A stretch of DNA of 18,135 bases from a virus, in the UHGV virus genome UHGV-0175528; one strand, given 5' to 3'. The position numbers were made by a program, and so were the translations under genes. Of this stretch, positions 37 to 17,707 are shown one piece after another. The notes below the pieces were generated by a model that was not told the DNA's origin, made no database searches, and was given only the letters and a program-made list of their open reading frames with translations. Each line of letters opens with the position of its first letter. Position 1 is the first letter of the stretch.

Positions 37-972
37 TTATCTGTGGCGATTCAGAAAGATAAATTCTCGATTTCCACTTAACGGCTTCATCATCTCTAGT
101 ATCGCAATTGCTTCATCTGACAATGGAACAGTATGGTCGCGGTTCATTTTCATGCGTGCTGCAGGAATCTTCCACTCTCGCGCTTCTATGTCTACCTCTT
201 CCCAGAGAGCTTCAGCCGCTTCGGCAGGGCGGGTAATAGTAAGAAGTTGCCACATGAACAGGCAGCGTGTGGAAAGGCTAATGCTGGCTGTTCGCATCGT
301 CTGCATTAACTGAGGTAGCTGATCCGGTCGAATGCTGGGCATGTTCTTTTTCTGAGGCTTCTCGAAGGCTTTACCGATATTAACGCTGGGAACAGCATCA
401 ATCAGCCCTGTGTTCTGGGCATAGATCATGACCTCATTAATACGTTGGCACAGGCGACGAACAGTTTCCAGTGCTCCTCTGGCCTGAACCGGTTGTACGG
501 CCTGAACCAGTGTATGAGCTTTAATATCTGTAACGCTAACGTCGCCAATCGCAGGAAAGACGTCTCTTTCAAGAGAGCGCCAGATATCTTCCGCATAGTC
601 CTCTGTCACACTGGCTTTCTTCACATTCCACCAACGTTCAGCTACGAGTTGGAAAGTGTTGGTTTTGGCTTCCAGCGAACTGCGCAATTGTTCTTGCTGA
701 TGTTCCTGCGGATCGATCTGTTTAGCCAGTAGTGAGCGGGACTCTGCACGGTAGTTTCTGGCATCGGCAAGGGTAACTGACGGGTAGGAGCCTATGCTCT
801 TCTTTGCTCGTTTCTTGGTGACAGGGCGAATGTAGCGAAACTGCCAGATTTTACTCCCGCTGGATTTAATGAGTAGCTCAAGGCCATCGCCATCATAGAG
901 AACGTAGTCCGCCTCCTTGGGTTTGGCTGATTCTATTTCTTTAACGGATAGAGGTTTGGTTTGTCTTGCCAT
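37..972 (-). CDS. intA: P4-type (CP4-57 IntA-like) tyrosine integrase, N-terminal 311 aa only; ends after ...REFIFLNRHR, so the C-terminal catalytic region (HxxR and Tyr) is missing; probable pseudogene or remnant
   Basis: N-terminus MARQTKPLSVKEIESAKPKEADYVLYDGDGLELLIKSSGSKIWQFRY is typical of P4-family integrases. The conserved WxEVDxxxxEWxIPAxRMKxxRxHxVPLS block is present, but the ORF stops about 100 aa short at 37-39 (TAA). ATG at 970-972. Confidence 0.7.
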   Translation of the reverse strand: MARQTKPLSVKEIESAKPKEADYVLYDGDGLELLIKSSGSKIWQFRYIRPVTKKRAKKSIGSYPSVTLADARNYRAESRSLLAKQIDPQEHQQEQLRSSLEAKTNTFQLVAERWWNVKKASVTEDYAEDIWRSLERDVFPAIGDVSVTDIKAHTLVQAVQPVQARGALETVRRLCQRINEVMIYAQNTGLIDAVPSVNIGKAFEKPQKKNMPSIRPDQLPQLMQTMRTASISLSTRCLFMWQLLTITRPAEAAEALWEEVDIEAREWKIPAARMKMNRDHTVPLSDEAIAILEMMKPLSGNREFIFLNRHR

Positions 973-1204: not shown

Positions 1205-1366
1205 TGATCGGGATTTACATAATGTGTTGAATATGAACGATTTATTTTTTCATGCAAGACATTATGTGCATTTTACGTACATATCGTTGTCCCAGTAACG
1301 TCCTGATTCTGTCCAATATTTTGAAACATGTGTAGAATGTGGATTTTCGATTTTTGTAGAGAATTT

Positions 1367-2281
1367 CGGATGAAGGTTCTTGTTCCACCTCCTGAAATTT
1401 GTATTTATTCTGATAAGTACCGACTAGACACATTGAAATTTCTTAACGACATTGACACGATGGGGGTGACGGATGGTTGTAAGCTTGAGATTGATTTATC
1501 TAACGTTCGTTTTGCTTCAGCTGCGGCATCGCTACTATTTTTCGCAATAGTTAATCGGGCAAATCTGCTTACAGGTGATCCTAACTTGATACGTTTCAAA
1601 TGGCCGAAAAAAAACGACAATCCAAATGGGCATAAGTGGTTAGTTAGCACCGGGCTCTCTAAAGCTCTCCTGGCTGGAACCCCAGAGAAATTAGAAAATC
1701 TTATTAAAGATGGGCGTTTTTTTCAGTCTGCTACCGAACCATTTTCGCATTTATTGGACACAGTTAGTGTATTACAGTCGAAGGCAGCGTTAAATCAGCA
1801 TCAGTTAAATCTGCTCATGACAGCTGTTGGTGAGGCACTTTTGAATGTTTCGCATCATGCATACGAACATGAGATGTTTTCACAAGATTTAATTCTGCTC
1901 CAGGGGAAGCGTTGGTGGCAGTGTGCGTGGTTTGATCCTGCGCAAAATGAGGTTGTTTTTATCGTTTGTGATCTGGGGTTGGGGATTTTTCGATCGTTTA
2001 GTCCCGAGGCTGATGGTGTTAGTATAGAAAAACAAGTATCTTCAGTAGCAAGAGCTATGCTTGTTGGGCAGAGCCGTTTTGTAGGGGACGGGCGAGGGAA
2101 TGGCTCGGAAGACATAAAGAGGCCTATCGGTGTTGGGTGTGAGGATAAAGAAACACTCTTAATTCTGACCGGCAATGTACGATATAGCTATAATTCTTTC
2201 GACGAAGAACCTCGCTGTGAGAAACTTGCAGAGTATATTCCAGGTACATTGCTTCAGTGGTCCCTTACTCCAAGGAGATGA
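1367..2281 (+). CDS. GHKL-family ATPase / putative serine-protein kinase (SpoIIAB/RsbW anti-sigma-factor-like fold) with an N-terminal STAS-like segment
   Basis: N-box GEALLNVSHHAY, G1 box VCDLGLGIF, G2 box GDGRGNG and G3-like PGTLLQW sit in the C-terminal half in the order seen in SpoIIAB. N-terminal KLEIDLSNVRFASAAASLLF resembles the downstream STAS-like protein. Start is uncertain (ATG at 1328, 1337 or 1367), with no strong SD. Confidence 0.6.
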   Translation, partial: RMKVLVPPPEICIYSDKYRLDTLKFLNDIDTMGVTDGCKLEIDLSNVRFASAAASLLFFAIVNRANLLTGDPNLIRFKWPKKNDNPNGHKWLVSTGLSKALLAGTPEKLENLIKDGRFFQSATEPFSHLLDTVSVLQSKAALNQHQLNLLMTAVGEALLNVSHHAYEHEMFSQDLILLQGKRWWQCAWFDPAQNEVVFIVCDLGLGIFRSFSPEADGVSIEKQVSSVARAMLVGQSRFVGDGRGNGSEDIKRPIGVGCEDKETLLILTGNVRYSYNSFDEEPRCEKLAEYIPGTLLQWSLTPRR

Positions 2282-2285
2282 AAAC

Positions 2286-2609
2286 ATGGTTATAGTCATA
2301 GCTAAGCAATTTTCTAAAACGCCGTTTGGTCGATACACGTCGGACGGTCCTGACAGTGCTGAAAGATTCAGAAGAGATTTTTTGGTTCCAGCCTTTAAAT
2401 CGAGTGGCGAAAAAATTGTTGTGGATTTCAGGGGGATTGCTTTAGGTGTGGGGTCTTCTTTCTTGGAGGAAGCCTTCGGTGGGTTAGTGCGTAAAGAGGG
2501 GATTGCCAAATCTGAAGTTAAAACACGCTTAGAAATCGAAAGTGATATGCCATTTTATCAAGAACAGATATCTAAGTTTGTTGATCAAGCAAAACCTGAG
2601 TTGGCATAA
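2286..2609 (+). CDS. Small STAS-like protein (DUF4325-like; anti-sigma-antagonist-like), 107 aa
   Basis: AAGGAG SD 8 nt upstream of ATG 2286, 4 nt after the upstream stop. Motif KIVVDFRGIALGVGSSFLEEAFGGL resembles the STAS DxSG phospho-acceptor region. Confidence 0.6.
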   Translation: MVIVIAKQFSKTPFGRYTSDGPDSAERFRRDFLVPAFKSSGEKIVVDFRGIALGVGSSFLEEAFGGLVRKEGIAKSEVKTRLEIESDMPFYQEQISKFVDQAKPELA

Positions 2610-2622
2610 GGATTTTTGAAGA

Positions 2623-3192
2623 ATGGCGCAATATGCATGGATGTTTAGTGTCACAAGCATTGCTTTAGTGTTTGTCGGATGGTGGGTAACGTATTGTAAC
2701 GCTATGCGAATAGCTACACGTTCAGAGTCAAAGTCTATAGTTGATTCATTGACGAAACTTGTGAGTGAGCTTGCTGATATTTCGATAGATTATTGGCTTA
2801 AAAAAGTATCTCACATAACACCTCCTCCTGAATCATTACAGGGTTCAGTTGTTCCTGTTGAGGCTGCTGAGTATCTCACTGTGCTTTTGGCGAAGGCAAG
2901 CCAGGCAGGGCATTATTTTAAGTTACTGAATATTCGAGGTATTGAAGCTGATGCAAGTAAGCTATCTGCAGTGTTAGAAAAAACAAGCCTTGACTGTGAG
3001 ATCGCTTATTGTCAATCAGCTTCAGAACGCTGTGTGAGGGCTAATGAAATTATGTCTGTTTGCATGGAGGTGATAGAAGATATTCACTCTAATTTTCAAG
3101 CAGCATACCCTCCATCAAAACATATTTCACCTATTGCATGGTATAAAAGTAAAGTCAAAGAAATTGAAGAATGGCACGCTAGTATGTATTAG
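2623..3192 (+). CDS. Hypothetical membrane-anchored protein (one N-terminal TM helix, about 150-aa soluble domain), 189 aa
   Basis: ORF follows the STAS-like gene by 13 nt. N-terminal AWMFSVTSIALVFVGWWVTYC is hydrophobic. AT-rich like its two neighbours; no recognisable catalytic motif. Confidence 0.5.
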   Translation: MAQYAWMFSVTSIALVFVGWWVTYCNAMRIATRSESKSIVDSLTKLVSELADISIDYWLKKVSHITPPPESLQGSVVPVEAAEYLTVLLAKASQAGHYFKLLNIRGIEADASKLSAVLEKTSLDCEIAYCQSASERCVRANEIMSVCMEVIEDIHSNFQAAYPPSKHISPIAWYKSKVKEIEEWHASMY

Positions 3193-4360
3193 AGTTGTAT
3201 GTCTTTACTGATTTCCCATCGTATTCAGCCAAATACGAACCGTAATGTCGAAAAAGCATTTCCGGTCCTTTATGCCCCATCTGACCAGCAAGCCAGAACA
3301 GGTTAACGCCCTGGCTAATGTGCCGAGTGGCGAACGTGTGGCGTGTCTGGTACGGATTGCGATAGCGTACACCAGCTTTTTTAAGGGTTGGCACCCAGGC
3401 TTTTTTTCGGATCGCGTCCGCATTTGCCCAAGGGGCGCGAGTTTTTGGATCGCTGAATATAAAGTCGCTTTTTAGCGCCGTGTAGGGCTTTTGTGCCTGA
3501 AGAGCCGCCAGCGCTTCGCTGTTCAGTTGCACTTTGCGGGTGCCGGCTTTTGTTTTGGTGCTTTTGATTACCCCGACTACGCTTGCAATCTGAACATGCG
3601 CGGTGTTGCCGATAAAGTCTATATCCGTCCAGCGCAACGCGCACAATTCTGAGCTGCGCAGTCCGGTATTAAAGGCAAAGCGAAACAGATTTCGCCATTC
3701 CGGGTAATGACAGGCGCCATAGATTGCTGCCGTCTCCGCTGGTGTAAAAGGATCGACCTCGTAATCATCACTGCCTGGTGTGTTGTCCAATACGTGATAC
3801 CGGCTGGCGCTGACTAGCGTGACAGGATTTATTGTTAACAAACCATCGGTCACCGCCTCATCTATGGCGCTGCGCAGGAATGAAAGATTATTGCGGATAG
3901 TTTTCAGTTTTGTTTTTCTGCTGGCGATCCAGTTTTTTAGTACTGCAGGTGTCAGTTCTGATACATGAAATTTATGCAATGCTGACAGCGCCGACAGGCA
4001 TTTTTCATAACCTCTAATTGTCGATGGTGACAGGTTACGGTTCTGGCAGATATTCAGGTATTCATCCAGGTAAGATTTTATATTTTTGTTTTTTTTCACT
4101 CCCCCGAATAGCTCCAGCTTTTGGGAGTTGGGGAAGTATTTTGCATACTCGAAGGTACCACTGATAATCTGATTTTTTATTTCTCCCAGCAGGCGCTCGG
4201 CATACTTCACACTGCGCGCGTTTACTTCCATTCTGGAGAGGGGCTCCCGACACAGAACCCCTTTATATGTAAAAGTGATAACCAGGGTGCTACCAGTTTT
4301 ATGCTGGCGAATAGTTACTCCTCTAGGGAGAGATAATGATCCTTGTTCTTTCTTGCCCAT
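3179..4360 (-). CDS. int: Tyrosine recombinase / phage integrase (lambdoid prophage Int), full length
   Basis: C-terminal catalytic region has RHTFATRH (HxxR region) and LFRHYGSY (Tyr). GGAGG SD 7 nt upstream of ATG 4358-4360; the track start at 4387 is a TTG. Confidence 0.9.
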   Translation of the reverse strand: MGKKEQGSLSLPRGVTIRQHKTGSTLVITFTYKGVLCREPLSRMEVNARSVKYAERLLGEIKNQIISGTFEYAKYFPNSQKLELFGGVKKNKNIKSYLDEYLNICQNRNLSPSTIRGYEKCLSALSALHKFHVSELTPAVLKNWIASRKTKLKTIRNNLSFLRSAIDEAVTDGLLTINPVTLVSASRYHVLDNTPGSDDYEVDPFTPAETAAIYGACHYPEWRNLFRFAFNTGLRSSELCALRWTDIDFIGNTAHVQIASVVGVIKSTKTKAGTRKVQLNSEALAALQAQKPYTALKSDFIFSDPKTRAPWANADAIRKKAWVPTLKKAGVRYRNPYQTRHTFATRHISQGVNLFWLAGQMGHKGPEMLFRHYGSYLAEYDGKSVKTYNSNTY

Positions 4361-4524
4361 TTTGTAACCTCCATTAAGTCGACCCAACGTTCTTTAACTC
4401 CGTCGACTTTTAATACATGTACCCCTTCTTTCCATATTCCTCTTTGTATCCGTTTGTTAACGGCATCAACCGTTTCTCCTGCGTTGCGGCAGTAGGTTGA
4501 TATAGGTACGCAATCCAGCCCCAC
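4315..4524 (-). CDS. xis: Putative excisionase (Xis-like small DNA-binding protein), overlapping the int 5' end
   Basis: 69-aa basic protein directly upstream of int, overlapping it by 46 nt as in lambda xis/int. Loose resemblance to excisionases (ISTYCRNAGETVDAVNKRIQRG). GTG start with a close SD. Confidence 0.5.
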   Translation of the reverse strand: MGLDCVPISTYCRNAGETVDAVNKRIQRGIWKEGVHVLKVDGVKERWVDLMEVTKWARKNKDHYLSLEE

Positions 4525-9072: not shown

Positions 9073-9762
9073 CTAACCAAATCTGTTTATATTGAATGGT
9101 ACTGATGAGATCACTTTAGACTGGATATAAAGCAGAGCTAACCCCTCTTTTTCGATGCTCCATGGTTGATAATTGGGGTTATCAGATAACACCATGATTT
9201 TGCTTCCAATTTTCTGAAGTCTTTTCACGTAGCATTCTCCATCAAAACAAAATGCATAAATGCCATCGCCATCAAAATAAGTTACTGTCTTATCAAGAAA
9301 AAGAAGGTCGCCAGGTGAGATTGTGGGAGCCATACTGTCTCCTCTGGCGTTACCTATTTCTATATTTTTGAATGCCCGATTTCCAACAAGGCGTCGGGCA
9401 TATTCAGGATCAAGTTCTATTGAGCGCACTACATCTATCAAGTCACCACGTACATGAGTTCCATCACCGCAACTAAACTCAACATCAAGGACATTAAACA
9501 CGACGCTATCTGTTCTTGTCTGGTGTTTCTCTTGCGAGGAAAAGGTTGGTGAGGAGTCTTCACCTAAGAACCAGGATTGTGGATAACCGCTAATCTCTGA
9601 TAAATGCGCGAGCTTATCACTCCGTGGAAATGTTTTTCCTGTTGTCCAGTACTGCACTGATTGCGCACTCACACCTAACTTGCGGGCCAGTTGAGCCTGA
9701 GTCCATCCTTTGGCTTTCAGCATTGCGGCTATTCGATTTTCCGTGTTTTTGACGTTCTTCAT
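9073..9762 (-). CDS. cI: CI-like phage repressor (N-terminal HTH, C-terminal S24 LexA-type autopeptidase)
   Basis: HTH region WTQAQLARKLGVSAQSVQYW; S24 nucleophile motif GDSMAPTISPGDLLFLDK and Lys in CYVKRL. ATG at 9760-9762 has an AGGA SD; the track start at 9768 is a TTG. Confidence 0.9.
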   Translation of the reverse strand: MKNVKNTENRIAAMLKAKGWTQAQLARKLGVSAQSVQYWTTGKTFPRSDKLAHLSEISGYPQSWFLGEDSSPTFSSQEKHQTRTDSVVFNVLDVEFSCGDGTHVRGDLIDVVRSIELDPEYARRLVGNRAFKNIEIGNARGDSMAPTISPGDLLFLDKTVTYFDGDGIYAFCFDGECYVKRLQKIGSKIMVLSDNPNYQPWSIEKEGLALLYIQSKVISSVPFNINRFG

Positions 9763-9895
9763 GACCAAATCCTGTGGGTTTCTTTACAAGGATAAATCTT
9801 TATTTGATTTTAGTGTATTCGATCCTTTTGCAACTTGCATGTTAATTTAAACTTGATGTATTCTTGATTCATAAAGTTAATATTGGTGCTTTGTT
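9763..9895. promoter_or_regulatory. Divergent cI/cro control region (OR-like operators with pRM/pR-type promoters)
   Basis: 133-bp AT-rich spacer between divergent repressor and Cro-like genes. Repeated CTTGAT / ATCAAG-type half-sites (AACTTGATG, TTCTTGATTCAT, GCAACTTGCATG) are shared with the pL region. Confidence 0.6.
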
Positions 9896-10651: not shown

Positions 10652-11359
10652 ATGAGCACTGCAATTTTTAACGGCAAAGCATCCATGACCAGCCTTGAAA
10701 TCGCAGAGCTGGTGGGTAAGCGTCATGACAATGTGAAACGAACTATTGAAACATTGGCCAAAGGTGGCGTTGTTCGGTCTCCTCAAATTGAGGTTTCCGA
10801 AAGAATCAATAACTTAGGTTTTAAAGTTCAATATGAGCATTACCTGTTTGAAGGAGAACAAGGTAAGCGCGACAGTATCATTGTCGTCGCTCAGCTTTGC
10901 CCCGAATTCACAGCCCGCCTGGTAGATCGCTGGCGCGAACTGGAAGAACAGATCCGTAAGCCAATGAGCGAAATCGAAATGGTTGCCGCAATGGCCCTTG
11001 AAGCCGTTCGCCAACAGAAACGGATCACTCAGGTGGAAGAAAAAGTCAGCCACGTTGCTGAAACAGTCGAGCAAATCAAAAAGGGCACTATTCGTGAGGG
11101 CTATGCCGGATATCGCCAACTGAAAGCGAAAACCGGTTTGTCAGATGATAAATGCCGCAATCTGGTGAACGCTTATCAAATTCCTACAGATACCCACGAG
11201 TTTATGACGCCGGACGGATTGTTATCACGTCGCGCAATTGTTGCTGTAGAACCGTTTATGGCTGCTTTTTATCGGGTTACGGAGGAAGCAGAACCGCGAG
11301 GGACTCGCTGGTATCACCCGAAAATAGGGTTATTTCAGGTTATTGGTTGGCAGCGGTGA
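10652..11359 (+). CDS. Rha-family phage regulatory protein (antirepressor-like), N-terminal Rha domain plus C-terminal domain
   Basis: MSTAIFNGKASMTSLEIAELVGKRHDNVKRTIETL matches the Rha (Phage_pRha) N-terminal signature; AGGAG SD 6 nt upstream of ATG 10652. Confidence 0.75.
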   Translation: MSTAIFNGKASMTSLEIAELVGKRHDNVKRTIETLAKGGVVRSPQIEVSERINNLGFKVQYEHYLFEGEQGKRDSIIVVAQLCPEFTARLVDRWRELEEQIRKPMSEIEMVAAMALEAVRQQKRITQVEEKVSHVAETVEQIKKGTIREGYAGYRQLKAKTGLSDDKCRNLVNAYQIPTDTHEFMTPDGLLSRRAIVAVEPFMAAFYRVTEEAEPRGTRWYHPKIGLFQVIGWQR

Positions 11360-11385
11360 AAAAAAAGCCGGGTAGTCACCCGGCT
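11359..11385 (-). terminator. Strong intrinsic terminator oriented for minus-strand transcription
   Basis: Minus strand reads GCCGGGT-GACT-ACCCGGC followed by 9 T (plus-strand A-run 11359-11367, stem arms 11368-11374 and 11379-11385). Confidence 0.65.
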
Positions 11386-11450
11386 CGCTCAACGTTAGTA
11401 AAGACAACTTCACAGAGAAGTAAGCCAGTAACATCCAAGAACATTTGCCT
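11362..11450 (-). ncRNA. Candidate small antisense RNA (about 90 nt, oop-like) with its own promoter and terminator
   Basis: Minus-strand promoter TTGAAA (plus 11480-11485), 18-nt spacer, extended -10 TGgTATTTT (plus 11456-11464); transcript would end at the 11359-11385 terminator. No ORF of meaningful length. Confidence 0.3.
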
Positions 11451-11775
11451 TAGTAAAAATACCAGTAAGCATATGAATGTTTCAAGCCTAAATATTGATT
11501 CTGCAATTTCGGGACGTTACACTGTTCTGGCACCTTATAAAGCGGGTGCCGGGATTGGAACCCCGGAATTGTCAGCGGCGACAAACGACGCGCCAGCGTC
11601 TTTTTTGTTGTCAGCGCCTGCGCACACCCAAATTATGGTGGGCTGGGCAGGGGAGCCGAAAGGCTCGCCGGTTCCCGTTGACGCCGGTAGTTCCAACCCT
11701 GTTCAGTCCGCCACCAGCGAGCTTGGAACCTCCGGTGGTGGATATTATCACCCACTGTCAACGGAGGCTGCCATC

Positions 11776-12138
11776 ATGGCTACTGTCCCAACTTCTCCAT
11801 ACCTGAAAATCGAAGTCGTCAACGGCAAAGCTGTTATTTTCTCCTTGCATGTTGCCTGTCATTTCAAGCGCATGCACCAGAACATCGTCGACAAAATCGA
11901 GTATCTGAACTGCTCACGCGAGTTTTTTACCCGCAATTTCATACCGGGTACTTATCACATCTATGGTGATTCTCTGCATGGTTATTACATCACCCTTGAT
12001 GGGCTGATGATGCTTCAGCTTGGGCTAAGTCTGCGCACAATGCGGTACTACGAGAGCTGCATTGAAGCATTCCATGAGGCAGAAAACAGCCTCAGTCATA
12101 CCGCTTTCCGCCGTAATCAATGGGAGGCGCGTCCATGA
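11776..12138 (+). CDS. Short Rha-domain protein (120 aa)
   Basis: GGAGG SD 7 nt upstream of ATG 11776; MATVPTSPYLKIEVVNGKAVIFSLHVACHFKRMHQNIVDKIEYL...FFTRNF...YITLDGLMMLQLG follows the Rha-domain pattern. The track ORF extends upstream to 11152, but that part overlaps the previous gene and a GC-rich segment. Confidence 0.65.
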   Translation: MATVPTSPYLKIEVVNGKAVIFSLHVACHFKRMHQNIVDKIEYLNCSREFFTRNFIPGTYHIYGDSLHGYYITLDGLMMLQLGLSLRTMRYYESCIEAFHEAENSLSHTAFRRNQWEARP

Positions 12139-12329
12139 TTAGTTACGAAATTATTATTTCCACAACGGAATACAGAAACGATGTATCAGTTCGCACAGAT
12201 ACATCTGTCTGGCACCGCCGCTATAAATCCAGAAAAACGGCGGAACGCAAAGCGGCAGAGATGTGTGAAACCATCTCAATGAAAGGTAGCCCGGTTAAAT
12301 ACGTAACTACGGCGGAGGTGCGTCCATGA
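12135..12329 (+). CDS. Hypothetical small protein (64 aa)
   Basis: GGGAGG SD 7 nt upstream of ATG 12135; ATGA overlap with the upstream stop. Confidence 0.5.
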   Translation: MISYEIIISTTEYRNDVSVRTDTSVWHRRYKSRKTAERKAAEMCETISMKGSPVKYVTTAEVRP

Positions 12330-12550
12330 TTCGTCGCGTTGTGAATTCTCTGTATCACCGATACAACCGTTGCCCCCGTGTGGGGCAGTGGTTCACCACC
12401 AGCAATGGTCACGTTTTGCGGGTTTGTCTGGTCAGTATCGAAAGCCAGAAAGTTGTGTGTGAATTACTGGGGCGTAACTACACCATCAGTTACCCTCTGG
12501 CGGTGTTTCAGTCCGGAAAAATGTTTAAACGCCTGGGAGGTGCCGTGTGA
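12326..12550 (+). CDS. Hypothetical small protein (74 aa)
   Basis: GGAGG SD 7 nt upstream of ATG 12326; ATGA overlap with the upstream stop; initiation context nearly identical to the previous gene's. Confidence 0.55.
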   Translation: MIRRVVNSLYHRYNRCPRVGQWFTTSNGHVLRVCLVSIESQKVVCELLGRNYTISYPLAVFQSGKMFKRLGGAV

Positions 12551-13503
12551 GTAGCAAAATTCTCGGTAACGTCTGGGATGCATGTGCCGCGTATGGAGTC
12601 AAAGGTGCAAAGCTGATGATCATGGCGCGTCTGGCTGATTATTCGAATGATGACGGGGTGTGTTATCCCGGTGTTGAAACAATATGCCGACAGCTTGGGT
12701 TGGGAGAAAGCACAGTAAGAACGGCAATTTCAGAGCTGGAGGCTGATGGCTGGCTGACGCGTCAGTCACGTCGCAAAGGTAATCGTAATACGTCCAATCT
12801 TTATCATCTGAATGCTGATCGGCTTGAGCAGCTTGCCAGAACGGAGCGGGATAAGGTCGCTGAACTGAAACAGCAACGCAGACTTTCAGTATTACGTGAC
12901 CCGTCAGAATCTGAACCTTCAAAATCTGACCCGTCAGAATCTGAACCTTCAAAATTTGACCCGTCAGAATCTGAATGTTCAGGTGTGTTTGACCCTTCAG
13001 ATTCTGGCAAAAAAACGGTTTTGACCCTTCAGAATCTGGACCCAGATCCACAAGGTTTAAAACATGATCCGCAAGTAAATTCAAAACATGATCCGCAAGA
13101 TATTGGCGCATCCGCTGACGCGTCTGCACCAGCGCGCTCTGCCCGACAGGAATATTCACCGGAATTTGAACAGGCCTGGCAGGAATATCCCAAACGTGCT
13201 GGTGGTAATTCCAAGTCGGCAGCCTTCAAAGCCTGGAAAGCCCGTCTCAGGGAGGGAATAAAACCGGAGACCATGCTTGATGGTGTGAGACGTTATGCCG
13301 CCTGGGTACGTGCTACAGGAAATACCGGCACACAGTTCGTGAAGCAGGCTGCGACGTTCTTTGGACCCGATCGTCACTTCGAAGACTTCTGGCAACAGCC
13401 AGCCGCTCCCGGAGGTGGGCGACAGCGACAGGTCGATGTCCTGGCTGGCCTGGGAGCCATGTCTGACAAATTCGGTAAATCCAGTGACAAATTGACATTC
13501 TGA
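12547..13503 (+). CDS. Phage replication initiator (O-like; N-terminal winged-helix/HTH DNA-binding domain, repeat-rich linker, C-terminal domain)
   Basis: GTG start coupled to the upstream stop, with a GGGAGG SD. N-terminal GVCYPGVETICRQLGLGESTVRTAISELEADGWLTR is typical of HTH replication initiators. Iteron repeats lie inside the gene, and it sits upstream of DnaC-like and DnaB-like genes. Confidence 0.8.
   Translation: MSSKILGNVWDACAAYGVKGAKLMIMARLADYSNDDGVCYPGVETICRQLGLGESTVRTAISELEADGWLTRQSRRKGNRNTSNLYHLNADRLEQLARTERDKVAELKQQRRLSVLRDPSESEPSKSDPSESEPSKFDPSESECSGVFDPSDSGKKTVLTLQNLDPDPQGLKHDPQVNSKHDPQDIGASADASAPARSARQEYSPEFEQAWQEYPKRAGGNSKSAAFKAWKARLREGIKPETMLDGVRRYAAWVRATGNTGTQFVKQAATFFGPDRHFEDFWQQPAAPGGGRQRQVDVLAGLGAMSDKFGKSSDKLTF
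12897..13039. repeat. Iteron array (five copies of TGACCC[G/T]TCAGA[A/T]TCTG, about 30-33 bp period) inside the initiator gene; probable origin of replication
   Basis: Copies start at 12897, 12927, 12957, 12990 and 13022; followed by two copies of AAACATGATCCGCAAG (13059-13100). In frame they encode DPSESEPSK-type repeats. Confidence 0.65.
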
Positions 13504-13513
13504 GGTGACAGCG

Positions 13514-14392
13514 ATGATGACGTTTAACCTGCGTGAACAACAAAAAAGACTACAGGCGCGAATGGATGAGTTACGGGCAGAGATTGCATTTGCTCAGAAG
13601 GGCGAAAAGCCATGGCCTTATCGTTCCTGCCTGATGCGTGAAGGTCGCGGATATTGCGAAAAACACGGTAAATACCATACGCATATACTGGTGTGGAGCG
13701 ATCGTAATGGCGAGGACAGAGAAAAAATTTCATGCTGCCCTGACTGCTTGATCGCTGAGGCTAACGATTTGACCATGGAATTGTCGTCCATCAAGGCGGA
13801 AGAGCTGACTGATAACGCCGGAATTGCCCTGCGTTTTCGGGACTGCGAGTTTGATAATTATCTGGAGGTTAATCCTGACGCAGCCAGAAATCTTGCAGCC
13901 TGTCGCCGCTATGCGGAGAACTGGCCAGATATGCTGGAGAACGGCACCAGTCTTGTTATGACTGGCAGTTGCGGTACTGGGAAAAATCATCTGGCGGTAT
14001 CAATGGCAAAACACATCATCCGTAACTATCTGGCCAGTGTGGAGATCACCGACGTGATGCGTCTTACCCGTGCTGTGAAAAACTGCTGGCGGAATGGCAG
14101 CGAAAAAACAGCGGATGAAGTTATTGAGCATTATGCGTCAATGGATTTGCTGATCATCGACGAAGTTGGTGTTCAGTTTGGCAGCGCGGCTGAAATGGCT
14201 ATTTTGCAGGAAATTATCAATGCCCGGTACGAAAGTATTCTGCCCACCATCCTGATTAGCAACCTTTCACCGGATGAGTTGTGGGCGTTCATCAGCCCCC
14301 GCATTGCCGACAGGATCACAGACGGGGGGCGCAACTGGTTGTCGTTCAACTGGCCCAGCTACCGTTCTCGTATCAGAGGTGTGGCTGCATGA
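13514..14392 (+). CDS. DnaC-like AAA+ helicase loader (IstB/DnaC family) with an N-terminal Cys-rich segment
   Basis: Walker A GSCGTGKNHLAVSMAK and Walker B LLIIDEVG; GAGGTGA SD before ATG 13514. Confidence 0.85.
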   Translation: MMTFNLREQQKRLQARMDELRAEIAFAQKGEKPWPYRSCLMREGRGYCEKHGKYHTHILVWSDRNGEDREKISCCPDCLIAEANDLTMELSSIKAEELTDNAGIALRFRDCEFDNYLEVNPDAARNLAACRRYAENWPDMLENGTSLVMTGSCGTGKNHLAVSMAKHIIRNYLASVEITDVMRLTRAVKNCWRNGSEKTADEVIEHYASMDLLIIDEVGVQFGSAAEMAILQEIINARYESILPTILISNLSPDELWAFISPRIADRITDGGRNWLSFNWPSYRSRIRGVAA

Positions 14393-15780
14393 CAATACCA
14401 GTCTGGCGTAACGATGACCTGGAAGGCGCTGTTATTGGCGCGTTCTTTCTGCGTGGGGCAGATCCTGAAGTGATGGATATTCTGGCCACATTGCCGGCGG
14501 ACGTTTTTTCTGTACGAGCGTATCGGGATATCTACACAGGTATCTGCAGACAGGCCCGTGTTTCAGGTGTGATTGACCCTGTGCTGCTGTGTAATGAGAT
14601 GCCGGAACTTGCCCCGGTGATTACTGATACCGGGCGCAAAACCTGGGTGAAGTCGTCACTGGAGCACTATGTTGCAGCGTTGCGGCGCAATGCCGCATTG
14701 CGCGATGCAGAAAAAACACTGAATGAGGCGTTACAGAAATTACGTGATGCGCATACCTGTGAAGCAGCTGAAGATGCTCTGAAGGATGCGCAGAACATGA
14801 TGGCCTCATTGTCGACGGGGAAGGGTATTATTCAGCCGGTACATATTGATGATGTGCTTCCGGAAGTGGTTGAACGTGTTGAATGCCGGAATCAGGGGCT
14901 GGAGAAATCCAGGACGCTGATGACCGGTATTGATGAACTGGACGCAAAAACAGGCGGTATGGAACCCGGCGACCTGGTATTTATTGCGGCTCGTCCTTCG
15001 ATGGGTAAAACCGAACTGGCGCTGGATATCATCGACAAGGTGACTGAGCAGGGGCATGGTGTTCTTCTGTTCACAATGGAAATGGCGAACATCCAGATTG
15101 GTGAGCGCATGGTATCTGCGGCTGGAGGAATGCCGGTATCACGCCTGAAATCTGTCGCTCACTTTGAAGATGAAGACTGGGCGCGTTTCTCCCAAGGTGT
15201 GGGGCGGATGACCGGGCGTAATATCTGGATGGTGGACCAGGCGAACCTGACCATTGACGAGATATATGCAACAACGAAACACCACCTGATTAAACATCCG
15301 GAAACGGCGCTGGTGGTGGTTGATTATCTCGGGCTGATAAAAACCCGGAGCACGGGGCGTCATGACCTTGCCGTGGGTGAAATCTCAAAGGGGCTTAAAG
15401 GCCTGGCAAAATCCGGCGGATTACCGGTGGTTGCGTTGAGTCAGCTCTCCCGCGGTGTGGAGTCCAGGCCCAATAAACGCCCCATGAACTCAGACCTGAA
15501 AAATTCCGGAGAAATAGAGGCGGATGCAGACATCATTCTGATGCTTTACAGGGATGAAGTGTACAACCCGGATACGCAGGCCAGGGGCATCGCAGAAATC
15601 AATATCACGAAACAACGTAACGGTTCTCTGGGGACGATTTACCGGCGTTTTTATAACGGACATTTTCTGCCTGTGGATCAGGAAAGCGCACAGATTCTTT
15701 CTACCCCAATGCAGCAGCCCCAGCCGCGCAGATACAGCAACAAACGAACTGACAGCAGTAAGATGGAGCGTTTCTTTTGA
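14389..15780 (+). CDS. DnaB-like replicative DNA helicase
   Basis: ATG 14389 overlaps the upstream TGA (ATGA). Walker A ARPSMGKTELALDI and DnaB-type C-terminal RecA-like domain (VVVDYLGLIK, SQLSRGVESR). Confidence 0.9.
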   Translation: MTIPVWRNDDLEGAVIGAFFLRGADPEVMDILATLPADVFSVRAYRDIYTGICRQARVSGVIDPVLLCNEMPELAPVITDTGRKTWVKSSLEHYVAALRRNAALRDAEKTLNEALQKLRDAHTCEAAEDALKDAQNMMASLSTGKGIIQPVHIDDVLPEVVERVECRNQGLEKSRTLMTGIDELDAKTGGMEPGDLVFIAARPSMGKTELALDIIDKVTEQGHGVLLFTMEMANIQIGERMVSAAGGMPVSRLKSVAHFEDEDWARFSQGVGRMTGRNIWMVDQANLTIDEIYATTKHHLIKHPETALVVVDYLGLIKTRSTGRHDLAVGEISKGLKGLAKSGGLPVVALSQLSRGVESRPNKRPMNSDLKNSGEIEADADIILMLYRDEVYNPDTQARGIAEINITKQRNGSLGTIYRRFYNGHFLPVDQESAQILSTPMQQPQPRRYSNKRTDSSKMERFF

Positions 15781-16609: not shown

Positions 16610-17707
16610 TTAGAACTGGTAAACCATACCAACAGCAACAATATCGTCGGTGTTTATACCAAGACCTCTGGTGAAATCATTTTTGTCAAGCAGGTTGATT
16701 TTGTAATCAACGAAAGTAGACATATTTTTGTTGAAGTAATAGGTTGCGCCTACATCAACATATTTAACTAAGTCTTGATCGCCCCATACTCCGAGATCCT
16801 TACCTTTAGATTGCAGGTAAGCAACGGACGGACGCAGCCCAAAATCGAACTGATATTGTGCAACAGCCTCAACGTTCTGAGCTTTATTGGCGACGAAGCG
16901 ATCAGCAAATACCGTCATATTCTGGGTTTCAGAATAGGTAGTGGCTAGGTAAATGTTGTTAGCGTCATATTTCAGACCAGCGGCCCAAACTTCTGCATTT
17001 TTACCGGAAGCAAATACTCCAGGAAGAACTTTCCCTAGATTAACCTGAGTGTCGGTACGGTCAGATTTCGCATAAGTTGCACCAATACCGAATCCTTCGT
17101 ATTCATAGGTAGCAGAGAAACCAAAGCCATCACCATTACCTTTGGTGTAGTTATCGAAACCGCTACGATCGTTTTTGCCTTGGTACTGGGCGGCAAAGTT
17201 CAGGCCATCAACCAGACCAAAGAAGTCGTTGTTACGGTAAGTTGCAACACCAGTAGCACGTTGGGTCATGAATACATCTGTTTGAGTCCAGGTATCGCCA
17301 CCGAATTCCGGCAGAACATCGGTCCATGCGCCGATATCGTATGCTACACCGTAGTTACGACCATAATCGATGGAGCCGTAGTCACCGAATTTCAGGCCAG
17401 CGAACGCAAGGCGAGTTTTATCCCCGGAAGAACCTTGAGATTCAGCACGGTTGCCTTTGAATTCATATTCCCACTGACCGAAACCAGTCAGTTGATCGTT
17501 GATTTGGGTTTCGCCTTTGAAGCCCAGACGAGCATAAGTTTTGTCACCATCGTGTTTATCGTTAGAGGAGAAGTAGTGCTCGGCATTAACTTTTCCGTAC
17601 AGATCCAGTTTGTTGCTGTCTTTGTTATAAATCTCTGCTGCCTGAGCAGACATCGCCATTAATACTGACGCAGCTACAGCAGAGATTGCCACTGTTAATT
17701 TTTTCAT
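16610..17707 (-). CDS. nmpC: Outer-membrane general porin of the OmpC/OmpF/PhoE family (NmpC/Lc-like), apparently intact; lysogenic-conversion gene
   Basis: Signal peptide [23 protein letters not shown] then [17 protein letters not shown]...; C-terminal ...VGMVYQF with terminal Phe; 365 aa; AAGGA SD before the ATG. Confidence 0.9.

Follow-up and report, generated by a model that had tools for sequence, protein, structure and literature searches.

The DNA analysed here (the window) was the 18,135-nucleotide (nt) UHGV virus genome UHGV-0175528, and the feature under study was a cluster of short repeats at 12897-13100, located inside a replication initiator gene. The cluster consists of an array of iterons and an adjoining second repeat within an A/T-rich tract, and it is placed between the coding sequences of the N-terminal and C-terminal domains of the initiator. 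The gene and its parts are listed below by coordinates and strand, with lengths in amino acids (aa) or base pairs (bp).

12547..13503, plus strand: replication initiator gene, 318 aa; GTG start overlapping the upstream stop (GTGA); matches to phrog_270, HTH_36, and phiP27 L17
12547..12894, plus strand: N-terminal winged-helix domain and long helix, aa 1-116; proposed reader of the iterons (HTH_36; AlphaFold2 model)
12897..12973, no strand: five tandem 15-bp iteron units, alternating TGACCCGTCAGAATC and TGAACCTTCAAAATC; copy number differs among relatives
12988..13007, no strand: distal iteron TTTGACCCTTCAGATTCTGG; in frame, encoding FDPSDSG; at least 90% column conservation in 58 unique relatives
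13020..13039, no strand: distal iteron TTTGACCCTTCAGAATCTGG; 19/20 identical to the copy at 12988, codon phase shifted by one base, encoding LTLQNLD
13042..13100, no strand: A/T-rich tract holding three GAWCCRCAAG units at distances of about 21-24 bp; proposed DNA-unwinding element (Tandem Repeats Finder; AT profile; kept in divergent relatives)
13100..13101 (nt 554/555 of the open reading frame, ORF), no strand: two-way mosaic (recombination) junction, where the specificity module meets the C-terminal domain (megablast sharing patterns)
13101..13503, plus strand: C-terminal helical domain, common to four N-terminal modules (helices 205-257 in the model); proposed recruiter of the helicase loader and helicase

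Repeats were located with Tandem Repeats Finder, which reported 12897-12975 at a period of 30 (2.6 copies, 97% matches, score 151) and also at a period of 15 (5.3 copies). The core TGACCCKTCAGAWTCTG occurs exactly five times, at 12897, 12927, 12957, 12990, and 13022. When up to three mismatches were allowed on both strands, 11 matches were obtained against 0.12 expected, all of them in 12897-13038, and this count was reached in 0 of 200 shuffles. The same interval holds seven copies of a 15-bp unit, composed of the 11-bp dyad TCAGAWTCTGA and a 4-bp spacer, and the fuller form of the core is (G)TCAGAWTCTGA(C). In the window allele the exact cores follow one another at intervals of 30, 30, 33, and 32 bp, the last two distances belonging to the distal copies, which are not in tandem. 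A repeat scan of the whole window identified the array as its sole clustered multi-copy repeat. Profiles of GC skew and composition gave nothing beyond a local C-rich signal on the top strand that is caused by the repeat itself. Scanning of 12300-13700 yielded two weak promoter-like sites on the minus strand (1.0 expected), none inside the repeats, and no terminators.

Repeats had been placed at 12897-13100 by an earlier reading made from the letters alone (the sequence-only reading), and both the Tandem Repeats Finder result and a motif count far above chance bear this out. That reading had described a 30-bp unit, present in three full and two diverged copies. A period of 30 is indeed reported, but the real period is 15 bp, and the apparent 30-bp unit is the alternation of two 15-bp variants. 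Only 2.6 such 30-bp units are present, and the actual layout is five tandem 15-bp units followed by two dispersed 20-mers, TTTGACCCTTCAGAWTCTGG, at 12988 and 13020. The repeats had also been read as coding for a linker in frame. They do lie inside the initiator ORF, where the array starts at nt 351 and, together with the A/T-rich repeats, occupies codons 118-185, but the last copy (13022) stands at codon phase 2 and encodes LTLQNL.

The second repeat, at 13045-13100, was reported at a period of 24 with 2.5 copies. It contains three GATCCRCAAG units, starting at 13045, 13066, and 13090, and two copies of AAACATGATCCGCAAG (13060-13075 and 13084-13099). These two copies are the ones given in the sequence-only reading, which had overlooked a third, shorter copy. 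The AT content peaks locally at 70% at 13050-13089, immediately to the right of the iterons, and is about 30% at 13110-13149. The start of the coding sequence for the C-terminal domain is GC-rich (AT down to 27-37%), and an imperfect palindrome, GCTGACGCGTCTGC, is located there at 13114-13127.

The identity of the ORF as an initiator, also proposed in the sequence-only reading, agrees with its PHROG annotation, as the whole protein matched phrog_270 ("replication initiation protein") with an E value of 3e-79. Its N terminus (aa 23-70) matched Pfam HTH_36 (PF13730) with an E value of 9.7e-12 and 45 bits against a gathering cut-off of 25. In databases the gene is labelled "helix-turn-helix domain-containing protein" or, wrongly, "GntR family regulator." A structure was modelled using AlphaFold2 from 20 homologues, with a mean predicted local distance difference test score (pLDDT) of 52.8 and values of 66-82 in the folded parts. 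The model contains a winged helix (helices 43-50 and 54-66, wing 70-88) followed by a long helix (90-116), a stretch predicted to be disordered (residues 118-200, pLDDT 30-36) within which the repeat codons fall, and a helical C-terminal domain (205-257). Because the iterons occupy codons of this disordered stretch, the gene can tolerate a constraint on its DNA, expansions by 15 bp, and a shift of frame. A fold search returned weak, generic winged-helix matches, including MarR-type dimers (E about 0.01), and placed the RepA_N initiators 4pt7 and 5kbj at ranks 44-45. The MarR-type matches are compatible with a dimer that reads the dyad and are not evidence for one. Among relatives of solved structure, sequence comparison gave only FadR-type and PaaX-type helix-turn-helix matches (E 0.05-0.4).

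The diversity among related loci (numbered with the prefix L) came from a scan of viral contigs, and 75 related loci were scanned for the array, which was present in 74. A scan of genome contigs gave one locus only, from Citrobacter, because the peptide patterns used were strict. Total copies per related locus range from 4 to 8, five being commonest, and across all relatives the copies number from at least 2 to about 9. The lengths of the related proteins accordingly step by five aa (298, 303, 308, 313, 318, 323, and 328), and there is in addition a 287-aa allele, P0094, in which the tandem units are absent and both distal copies are retained.

Selection on the repeats acts on the DNA. In about 70 loci the last copy is in the shifted phase, with 32-bp spacing; the three most divergent ones (L087, L089, and L090) have it in frame and at a distance of 33 bp, so compensating insertions or deletions flank a motif that is itself kept. 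The encoded peptides vary (DPSESE, HPSESD, EPPESG, FTLQNL, and FTRQNL) across relatives in which the core YCAGAWTCTGR is constant, and in some the core is a perfect palindrome (CTCCAGAWTCTGGAG in L089 and GTCAGAATCTGAC in L097). Among the 58 unique relatives, the majority-base frequency at codon positions 1, 2, and 3 was 0.94, 0.91, and 0.90 for 12987-13100, compared to 0.93, 0.97, and 0.69 for the N-terminal domain. Third positions in the disordered linker are thus far better conserved than those of the folded domain. In L089 and L090 the N-terminal coding DNA is 63-66% identical, whereas the distal 20-mers are 85-95% identical. The distal copies also change in concert, with 55/58 and 52/58 relatives concordant.

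Sharing patterns obtained with megablast divide the gene at 13100/13101. Homology is confined to ORF nt 555-957 (from window position 13101) in about 350 of the 407 complete E. coli genomes with a match and in 21 of the 24 phage records with one. In these, the shared C-terminal domain (IGASADASAPARSARQEY...) is joined to three other N-terminal modules, each of which has its own repeats at the equivalent place: four copies of TGGTGCAnnAnATTCACCAGG in L008 and L013, three copies of AAACCCAATTTCG with the 12-bp CAGAGAATACWA in L009, L010, and L012, and two copies of ACGTYAWAACGGAACA with four to five of TACAGAGATTAC in L014. In each of the three, the repeats are followed by a tract of short repeats of 60-70% A/T and then by the GC-rich shared segment. 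Conversely, only nt 2-554 are shared with the window by L045, L046, L074, L085, and L090, and the window-type N-terminal domain with its core is fused to several unrelated C-terminal domains in L085, L087, L089, L090, L095, and L097. In the distant relatives L095 (a plasmid-borne prophage of E. coli) and L097 (Pantoea), the STVRT recognition helix and the RRKGNRN-SN wing are kept and the core of the window stands in 15-bp tandem arrays, with unrelated C-terminal domains. The two sharing patterns together show a two-way co-variation of the repeats with the DNA-binding domain across the junction, the array and the N-terminal domain being passed on together as a unit. Such a pattern has long been familiar from hybrids of O and ori in the lambda family.

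A further junction was observed at 13421/13422 (ORF nt 875/876), where relatives switch to another C-terminal tail (...GKSLPISGFSEQDYGSTNFNW). In the relatives checked, the alternative tail coincides with a DnaC-like gene of 891 nt instead of 879 nt, which suggests co-specificity between tail and loader, comparable to that of lambda O and P.

Two observations were made on the recombinant loci themselves. L095 corresponds to 3429-4370 of plasmid pHNAH212872-2, and downstream of it are PerC and methyltransferase genes and no DnaC-like or DnaB-like genes; here the origin-recognition module appears to work with another route of helicase loading, presumably one that depends on the host. The arrays and A/T-rich tracts of the three other modules, which are unannotated and lie about 270 nt upstream of the shared junction, are candidate origins. 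These modules occur in several Stx1a, Stx2a, and Stx2d phages, and Pfam gave no match for two of their three N-terminal domains.

The initiator gene is followed directly by two further replication genes:

13514..14392, plus strand: DnaC/IstB-like AAA+ helicase loader (ATG at 13514); Pfam IstB_IS21 E 1.7e-15, phrog_50 E 4e-89, NCBIfam DnaC E 1.6e-37
14389..15780, plus strand: DnaB-family replicative helicase; Pfam DnaB_C E 1.8e-73, TIGR00665 E 5e-93; ATGA overlap with the loader stop

Homologues of the DnaC-like gene with a length of 879 nt are annotated in relatives.

Judged from these sequence comparisons, 12897-13100 is very probably the theta-replication origin of a phiP27-like lambdoid prophage, contained in its own initiator gene. 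The sequence-only reading had called the segment a likely origin, and computational support for this now comes from conservation at the DNA level, the copy in shifted frame, the adjacent A/T-rich tract, the two-way co-variation, and the gene context, in which initiator, loader, and helicase are consecutive in the early-right operon. In the proposed mechanism, dimers of the N-terminal winged helix would bind the dyad cores, which would share one face of the helix since their spacing of 30/30/33/32 bp is close to three helical turns. The nucleoprotein complex on the cores would then destabilise the neighbouring A/T-rich stretch (13042-13100). Once the DNA is open, the DnaB-like helicase of the phage (14389-15780) would be delivered to it by the DnaC-like loader (13514-14392), itself recruited by the C-terminal domain, and the host primase and polymerase would perform the remaining steps. 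As the linker tolerates almost any peptide, such an origin can grow or shrink in steps of 15 bp (five codons) and shift frame while the protein is unharmed.

Several points weigh against this assignment. The helical phasing of the strong sites is lost in alleles that differ by one 15-bp unit, such as that of Stx2_KH16-043. The A/T-rich tract is moderate only (70% over 40 bp, against 54% AT window-wide). The structure model is of low confidence and none of the fold matches reached E <= 0.001, so that the binding protein is assigned by inference only. The concerted changes of the distal copies mostly track two clades, and could stem from common descent or gene conversion instead of co-evolution with the protein. 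No literature linking phiP27 with iterons or an origin was found, the original phiP27 genome paper being outside the coverage, and no publication on origin, binding, or replication of this module was found in the searchable literature.

The same repeats could be sites at which the initiator or another regulator acts in autoregulation, as a transcriptional roadblock, in "handcuffing" copy control, or in exclusion, with the origin located elsewhere. Plasmid iterons are established to serve in copy control as well, and the co-variation shows that domain and sites belong together, not that replication starts at them. A precedent also comes from SPP1, whose initiator has a further binding site, oriR, distinct from the early origin (PMC3485210). 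A purely regulatory role nevertheless seems improbable, given that neither the motif nor any other repeat forms a second cluster in the 18-kb window, which takes in the whole immunity-replication region, that iterons followed by an A/T-rich tract form the classical origin arrangement in all four modules, and that the position of the array is within a few ORF bases of the lambda and P22 origins. Less probable again is that the repeats are a low-complexity, DPSESEPSK-like linker made by slippage, with no function as DNA and with a likeness among copies due to tandem-repeat homogenisation. Copy number does differ by in-frame 15-bp steps between close relatives, the segment is predicted to be disordered, and linkers rich in Ser, Pro, and Glu are generally common. 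However, homogenisation of this kind does not fit distal copies that are not in tandem, one of which is out of frame, 19/20 identical, and kept where N-terminal domains differ by up to 35%. Nor does it fit the absence of codon periodicity with well-conserved third positions, the persistence of the DNA core while the peptide changes, or the retention of both distal copies in P0094 after loss of all tandem ones.

The remaining alternative concerns the second repeat, whose TGATCCRCA units might be DnaA boxes of the host, a cluster of GATC sites for Dam and SeqA, or both, so that DnaA or methylation would control opening as in P1 oriR and oriC. Relatives carry a variant, TGATCCACA, that matches the DnaA box TTATCCACA at 8/9 positions, and the three GATC sites within 45 bp are the tightest GATC triple of the whole window. 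In the window, however, the search for near-consensus DnaA boxes beside the iterons gave only matches with two mismatches (13044, 13065, and 13089), and matches of this quality are not enriched (66 versus 56 expected). Identification of these units as DnaA boxes was therefore rejected for the window. A GATC cluster was likewise rejected as a conserved feature, since the number of GATC sites varies from 1 to 3 among the 58 relatives and the third unit is GAATC in the majority. Furthermore, the phage has its own loader and helicase, which make recruitment of a helicase by DnaA unneeded. We regard control by DnaA or methylation as very unlikely here, on a level with the linker explanation, and the second repeat is treated as part of the proposed unwinding element of the origin.

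A more specific proposal, which is speculative and on balance unlikely, is that the mechanism differs from that of the lambda O-some. The array presents uninterrupted alternating half-sites (GTCAGA-W-TCTGAC-NN-GTCAGA...) with a 15-bp period, and the natural variation in length (at least 2 to about 9 units, in 15-bp steps) might tune the strength of the origin, the burst size, or the incompatibility between co-resident prophages in the manner of a rheostat. If true, this would have consequences for the replication of Shiga-toxin (Stx) phages, and the segment would also be a clear natural example of an origin maintained by dual coding in two frames.

Upstream of the replication genes is one further listed feature:

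9073-9768, minus strand: CI-type repressor

A Cro/YdaS-like gene and Rha, Ant, and Ash genes are also upstream of the initiator, and an integrase, a Q antiterminator, and a porin are farther out. This gene content identifies the window as a lambdoid prophage, with the array in its early-right operon. Upstream of the initiator are two consecutive small ORFs, 12120-12329 (PHROG 7046) and 12326-12550 (PHROG 1153), to which PHROGs assigns no function; the stop of the second overlaps the initiator start (GTGA). Their start regions, 12123-12143 and 12314-12334, are near-identical (GGAGGYGCGTCCATGATTMGT).

Within ORF 11152-12138, in its Pfam Phage_ASH part (aa 123-216), two plus-strand segments gave Rfam matches at gathering level, 11530-11606 to isrK Hfq-binding RNA (63.6 bits) and 11631-11718 to C4 antisense RNA (81.4 bits). 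These matches suggest a P1/Gifsy-type, immI-like switch of antisense RNA and antirepressor just upstream of the replication genes, and the label "Ash family protein" may partly cover RNA genes. At the left end, a second integrase gene (37-972, minus strand) has an incomplete catalytic domain (positions 3-101 of 172 matched), and beside it is a gene pair (1328-2609, plus strand) with HATPase_c_2 (histidine-kinase-like ATPase) and STAS-like DUF4325. Both are outside the intact integrase (3179-4387), and the genes in 37-2609 may be the remnant of another element or a cargo or defence island at the attachment site. Right after the Q antiterminator is a full-length porin gene of Gram-negative type (16610-17707, minus strand; Porin_1 E 1e-154), which looks like a prophage-borne porin of OmpC/NmpC/Lc type, carried as lysogenic-conversion cargo.

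The initiator had 2241 protein relatives at E <= 1e-10. Among 5426 complete E. coli genomes, 407 contained part of the gene and 57 the exact specificity module, which is also present in Shiga-toxin phages such as phiP27 and Stx2_KH16-043. The analysis provides a concrete origin annotation for a previously unannotated but widespread replication module of Enterobacteriaceae prophages. Toxin gene dosage is driven by the replication of Stx phages, so knowledge of the origin and of what determines its specificity is of practical use. The mosaic family amounts to a natural experiment, in which a single C-terminal domain is paired with four DNA-binding modules and a single DNA-binding module with several C-terminal domains, and it could be used for studies of initiator-origin specificity and of dual coding. 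The principle was already established for lambda, P22, and SPP1, and the layout will be no surprise to a specialist.

The arrangement was compared to origins that are known. As in lambda O, P22 gene 18, and phage L gene 18, direct repeats bearing a dyad are located in the middle of the initiator ORF, after an N-terminal DNA-binding domain. The arrays start at almost the same place in the ORF (nt 349 for the lambda iterons, nt 353 for the P22 rep_origin, and nt 351 for the window). As in lambda and P22, an A/T-rich tract adjoins the iterons on the right, the N-terminal domain and iterons form a specificity unit, the C-terminal domain provides the link to the next replication protein, and the gene lies in the early-right operon after cro/cII-like genes. 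The principle of an origin inside the initiator gene that forms a specificity unit has been stated for lambda, P22, and L (PMC8022706).

The sequence-only reading had termed the arrangement "lambda-O-style," which holds for the architecture but not for the protein family, as the window initiator belongs with HTH_36 and not with Phage_rep_O. The window protein had no match to the lambda O family (PF04492 Phage_rep_O), to which lambda O (E 6e-36) and P22 gp18 (E 7e-38) both matched. Homology to lambda O or P22 gp18 was rejected on this ground together with BLASTP E values of 0.038 and 1.9 and an hhalign probability of 0.4%, although the alignments compared were shallow and a very remote winged-helix kinship is still possible. 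As the initiator is not a lambda O homologue, the layouts are analogous, not homologous. They also differ in detail, the lambda iterons being about 19 bp long, at 20-24-bp spacing and in four copies, whereas the window units are 15 bp long, directly abutting, and seven in number. In addition, lambda P hijacks the host DnaB, whereas the module in the window encodes a DnaC-like loader and a DnaB-like helicase.

P22 and SPP1, which also encode their own helicase, are the closest functional analogues, and by gene content SPP1 is the closest system that has been defined experimentally. Both SPP1 and the window have a three-gene module of initiator, loader, and DnaB-family helicase, with the origin embedded in the initiator gene. 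The loader of SPP1, G39P, is not known to be of the AAA+ DnaC/IstB type. In SPP1, oriL consists of AB-box iterons and an A/T-rich unwinding element inside gene 38, and works with the G39P loader and the G40P helicase (PMC5737612). Host phylum and protein families differ, and the repeat sequences are unrelated. G38P has been assigned to pfam09524 (PMC5737612), and the window initiator had no Pfam match to this family at E <= 0.01. The resemblance to SPP1 is functional and architectural only.

Iteron plasmids with a winged-helix Rep (pPS10, F, R6K, and RepA_N) likewise have direct repeats, bound by that initiator, next to an A/T-rich unwinding region, but the window is without convincing DnaA boxes and its putative origin is inside the initiator gene, not beside it. 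No plasmid in PLSDB appears to rely on the module as its replicon, although the search was uninformative, since the matches were prophage-like regions in plasmid or misassigned records.

The closest annotated phage is phiP27 (Stx2e phage), whose genes L17-L19 are the replication module of the window, with 97% DNA identity over the initiator (L17). The iterons, the second repeat, and the DnaC-like and DnaB-like genes are as in the window, and the difference lies in the number of tandem units, three in phiP27 (five copies in total) versus five in the window (seven in total). L17 is annotated only as hypothetical or as a "helix-turn-helix domain-containing protein," and the phiP27 record carries no rep_origin feature. 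The "P27" Stx phage of Kozlowska et al., with which the biochemistry of O-iteron complexes was studied, has lambda-type iterons, ATCCCTCAAAACGAGGGA (PMC7466680), and is a different replicon from that of phiP27 L17.

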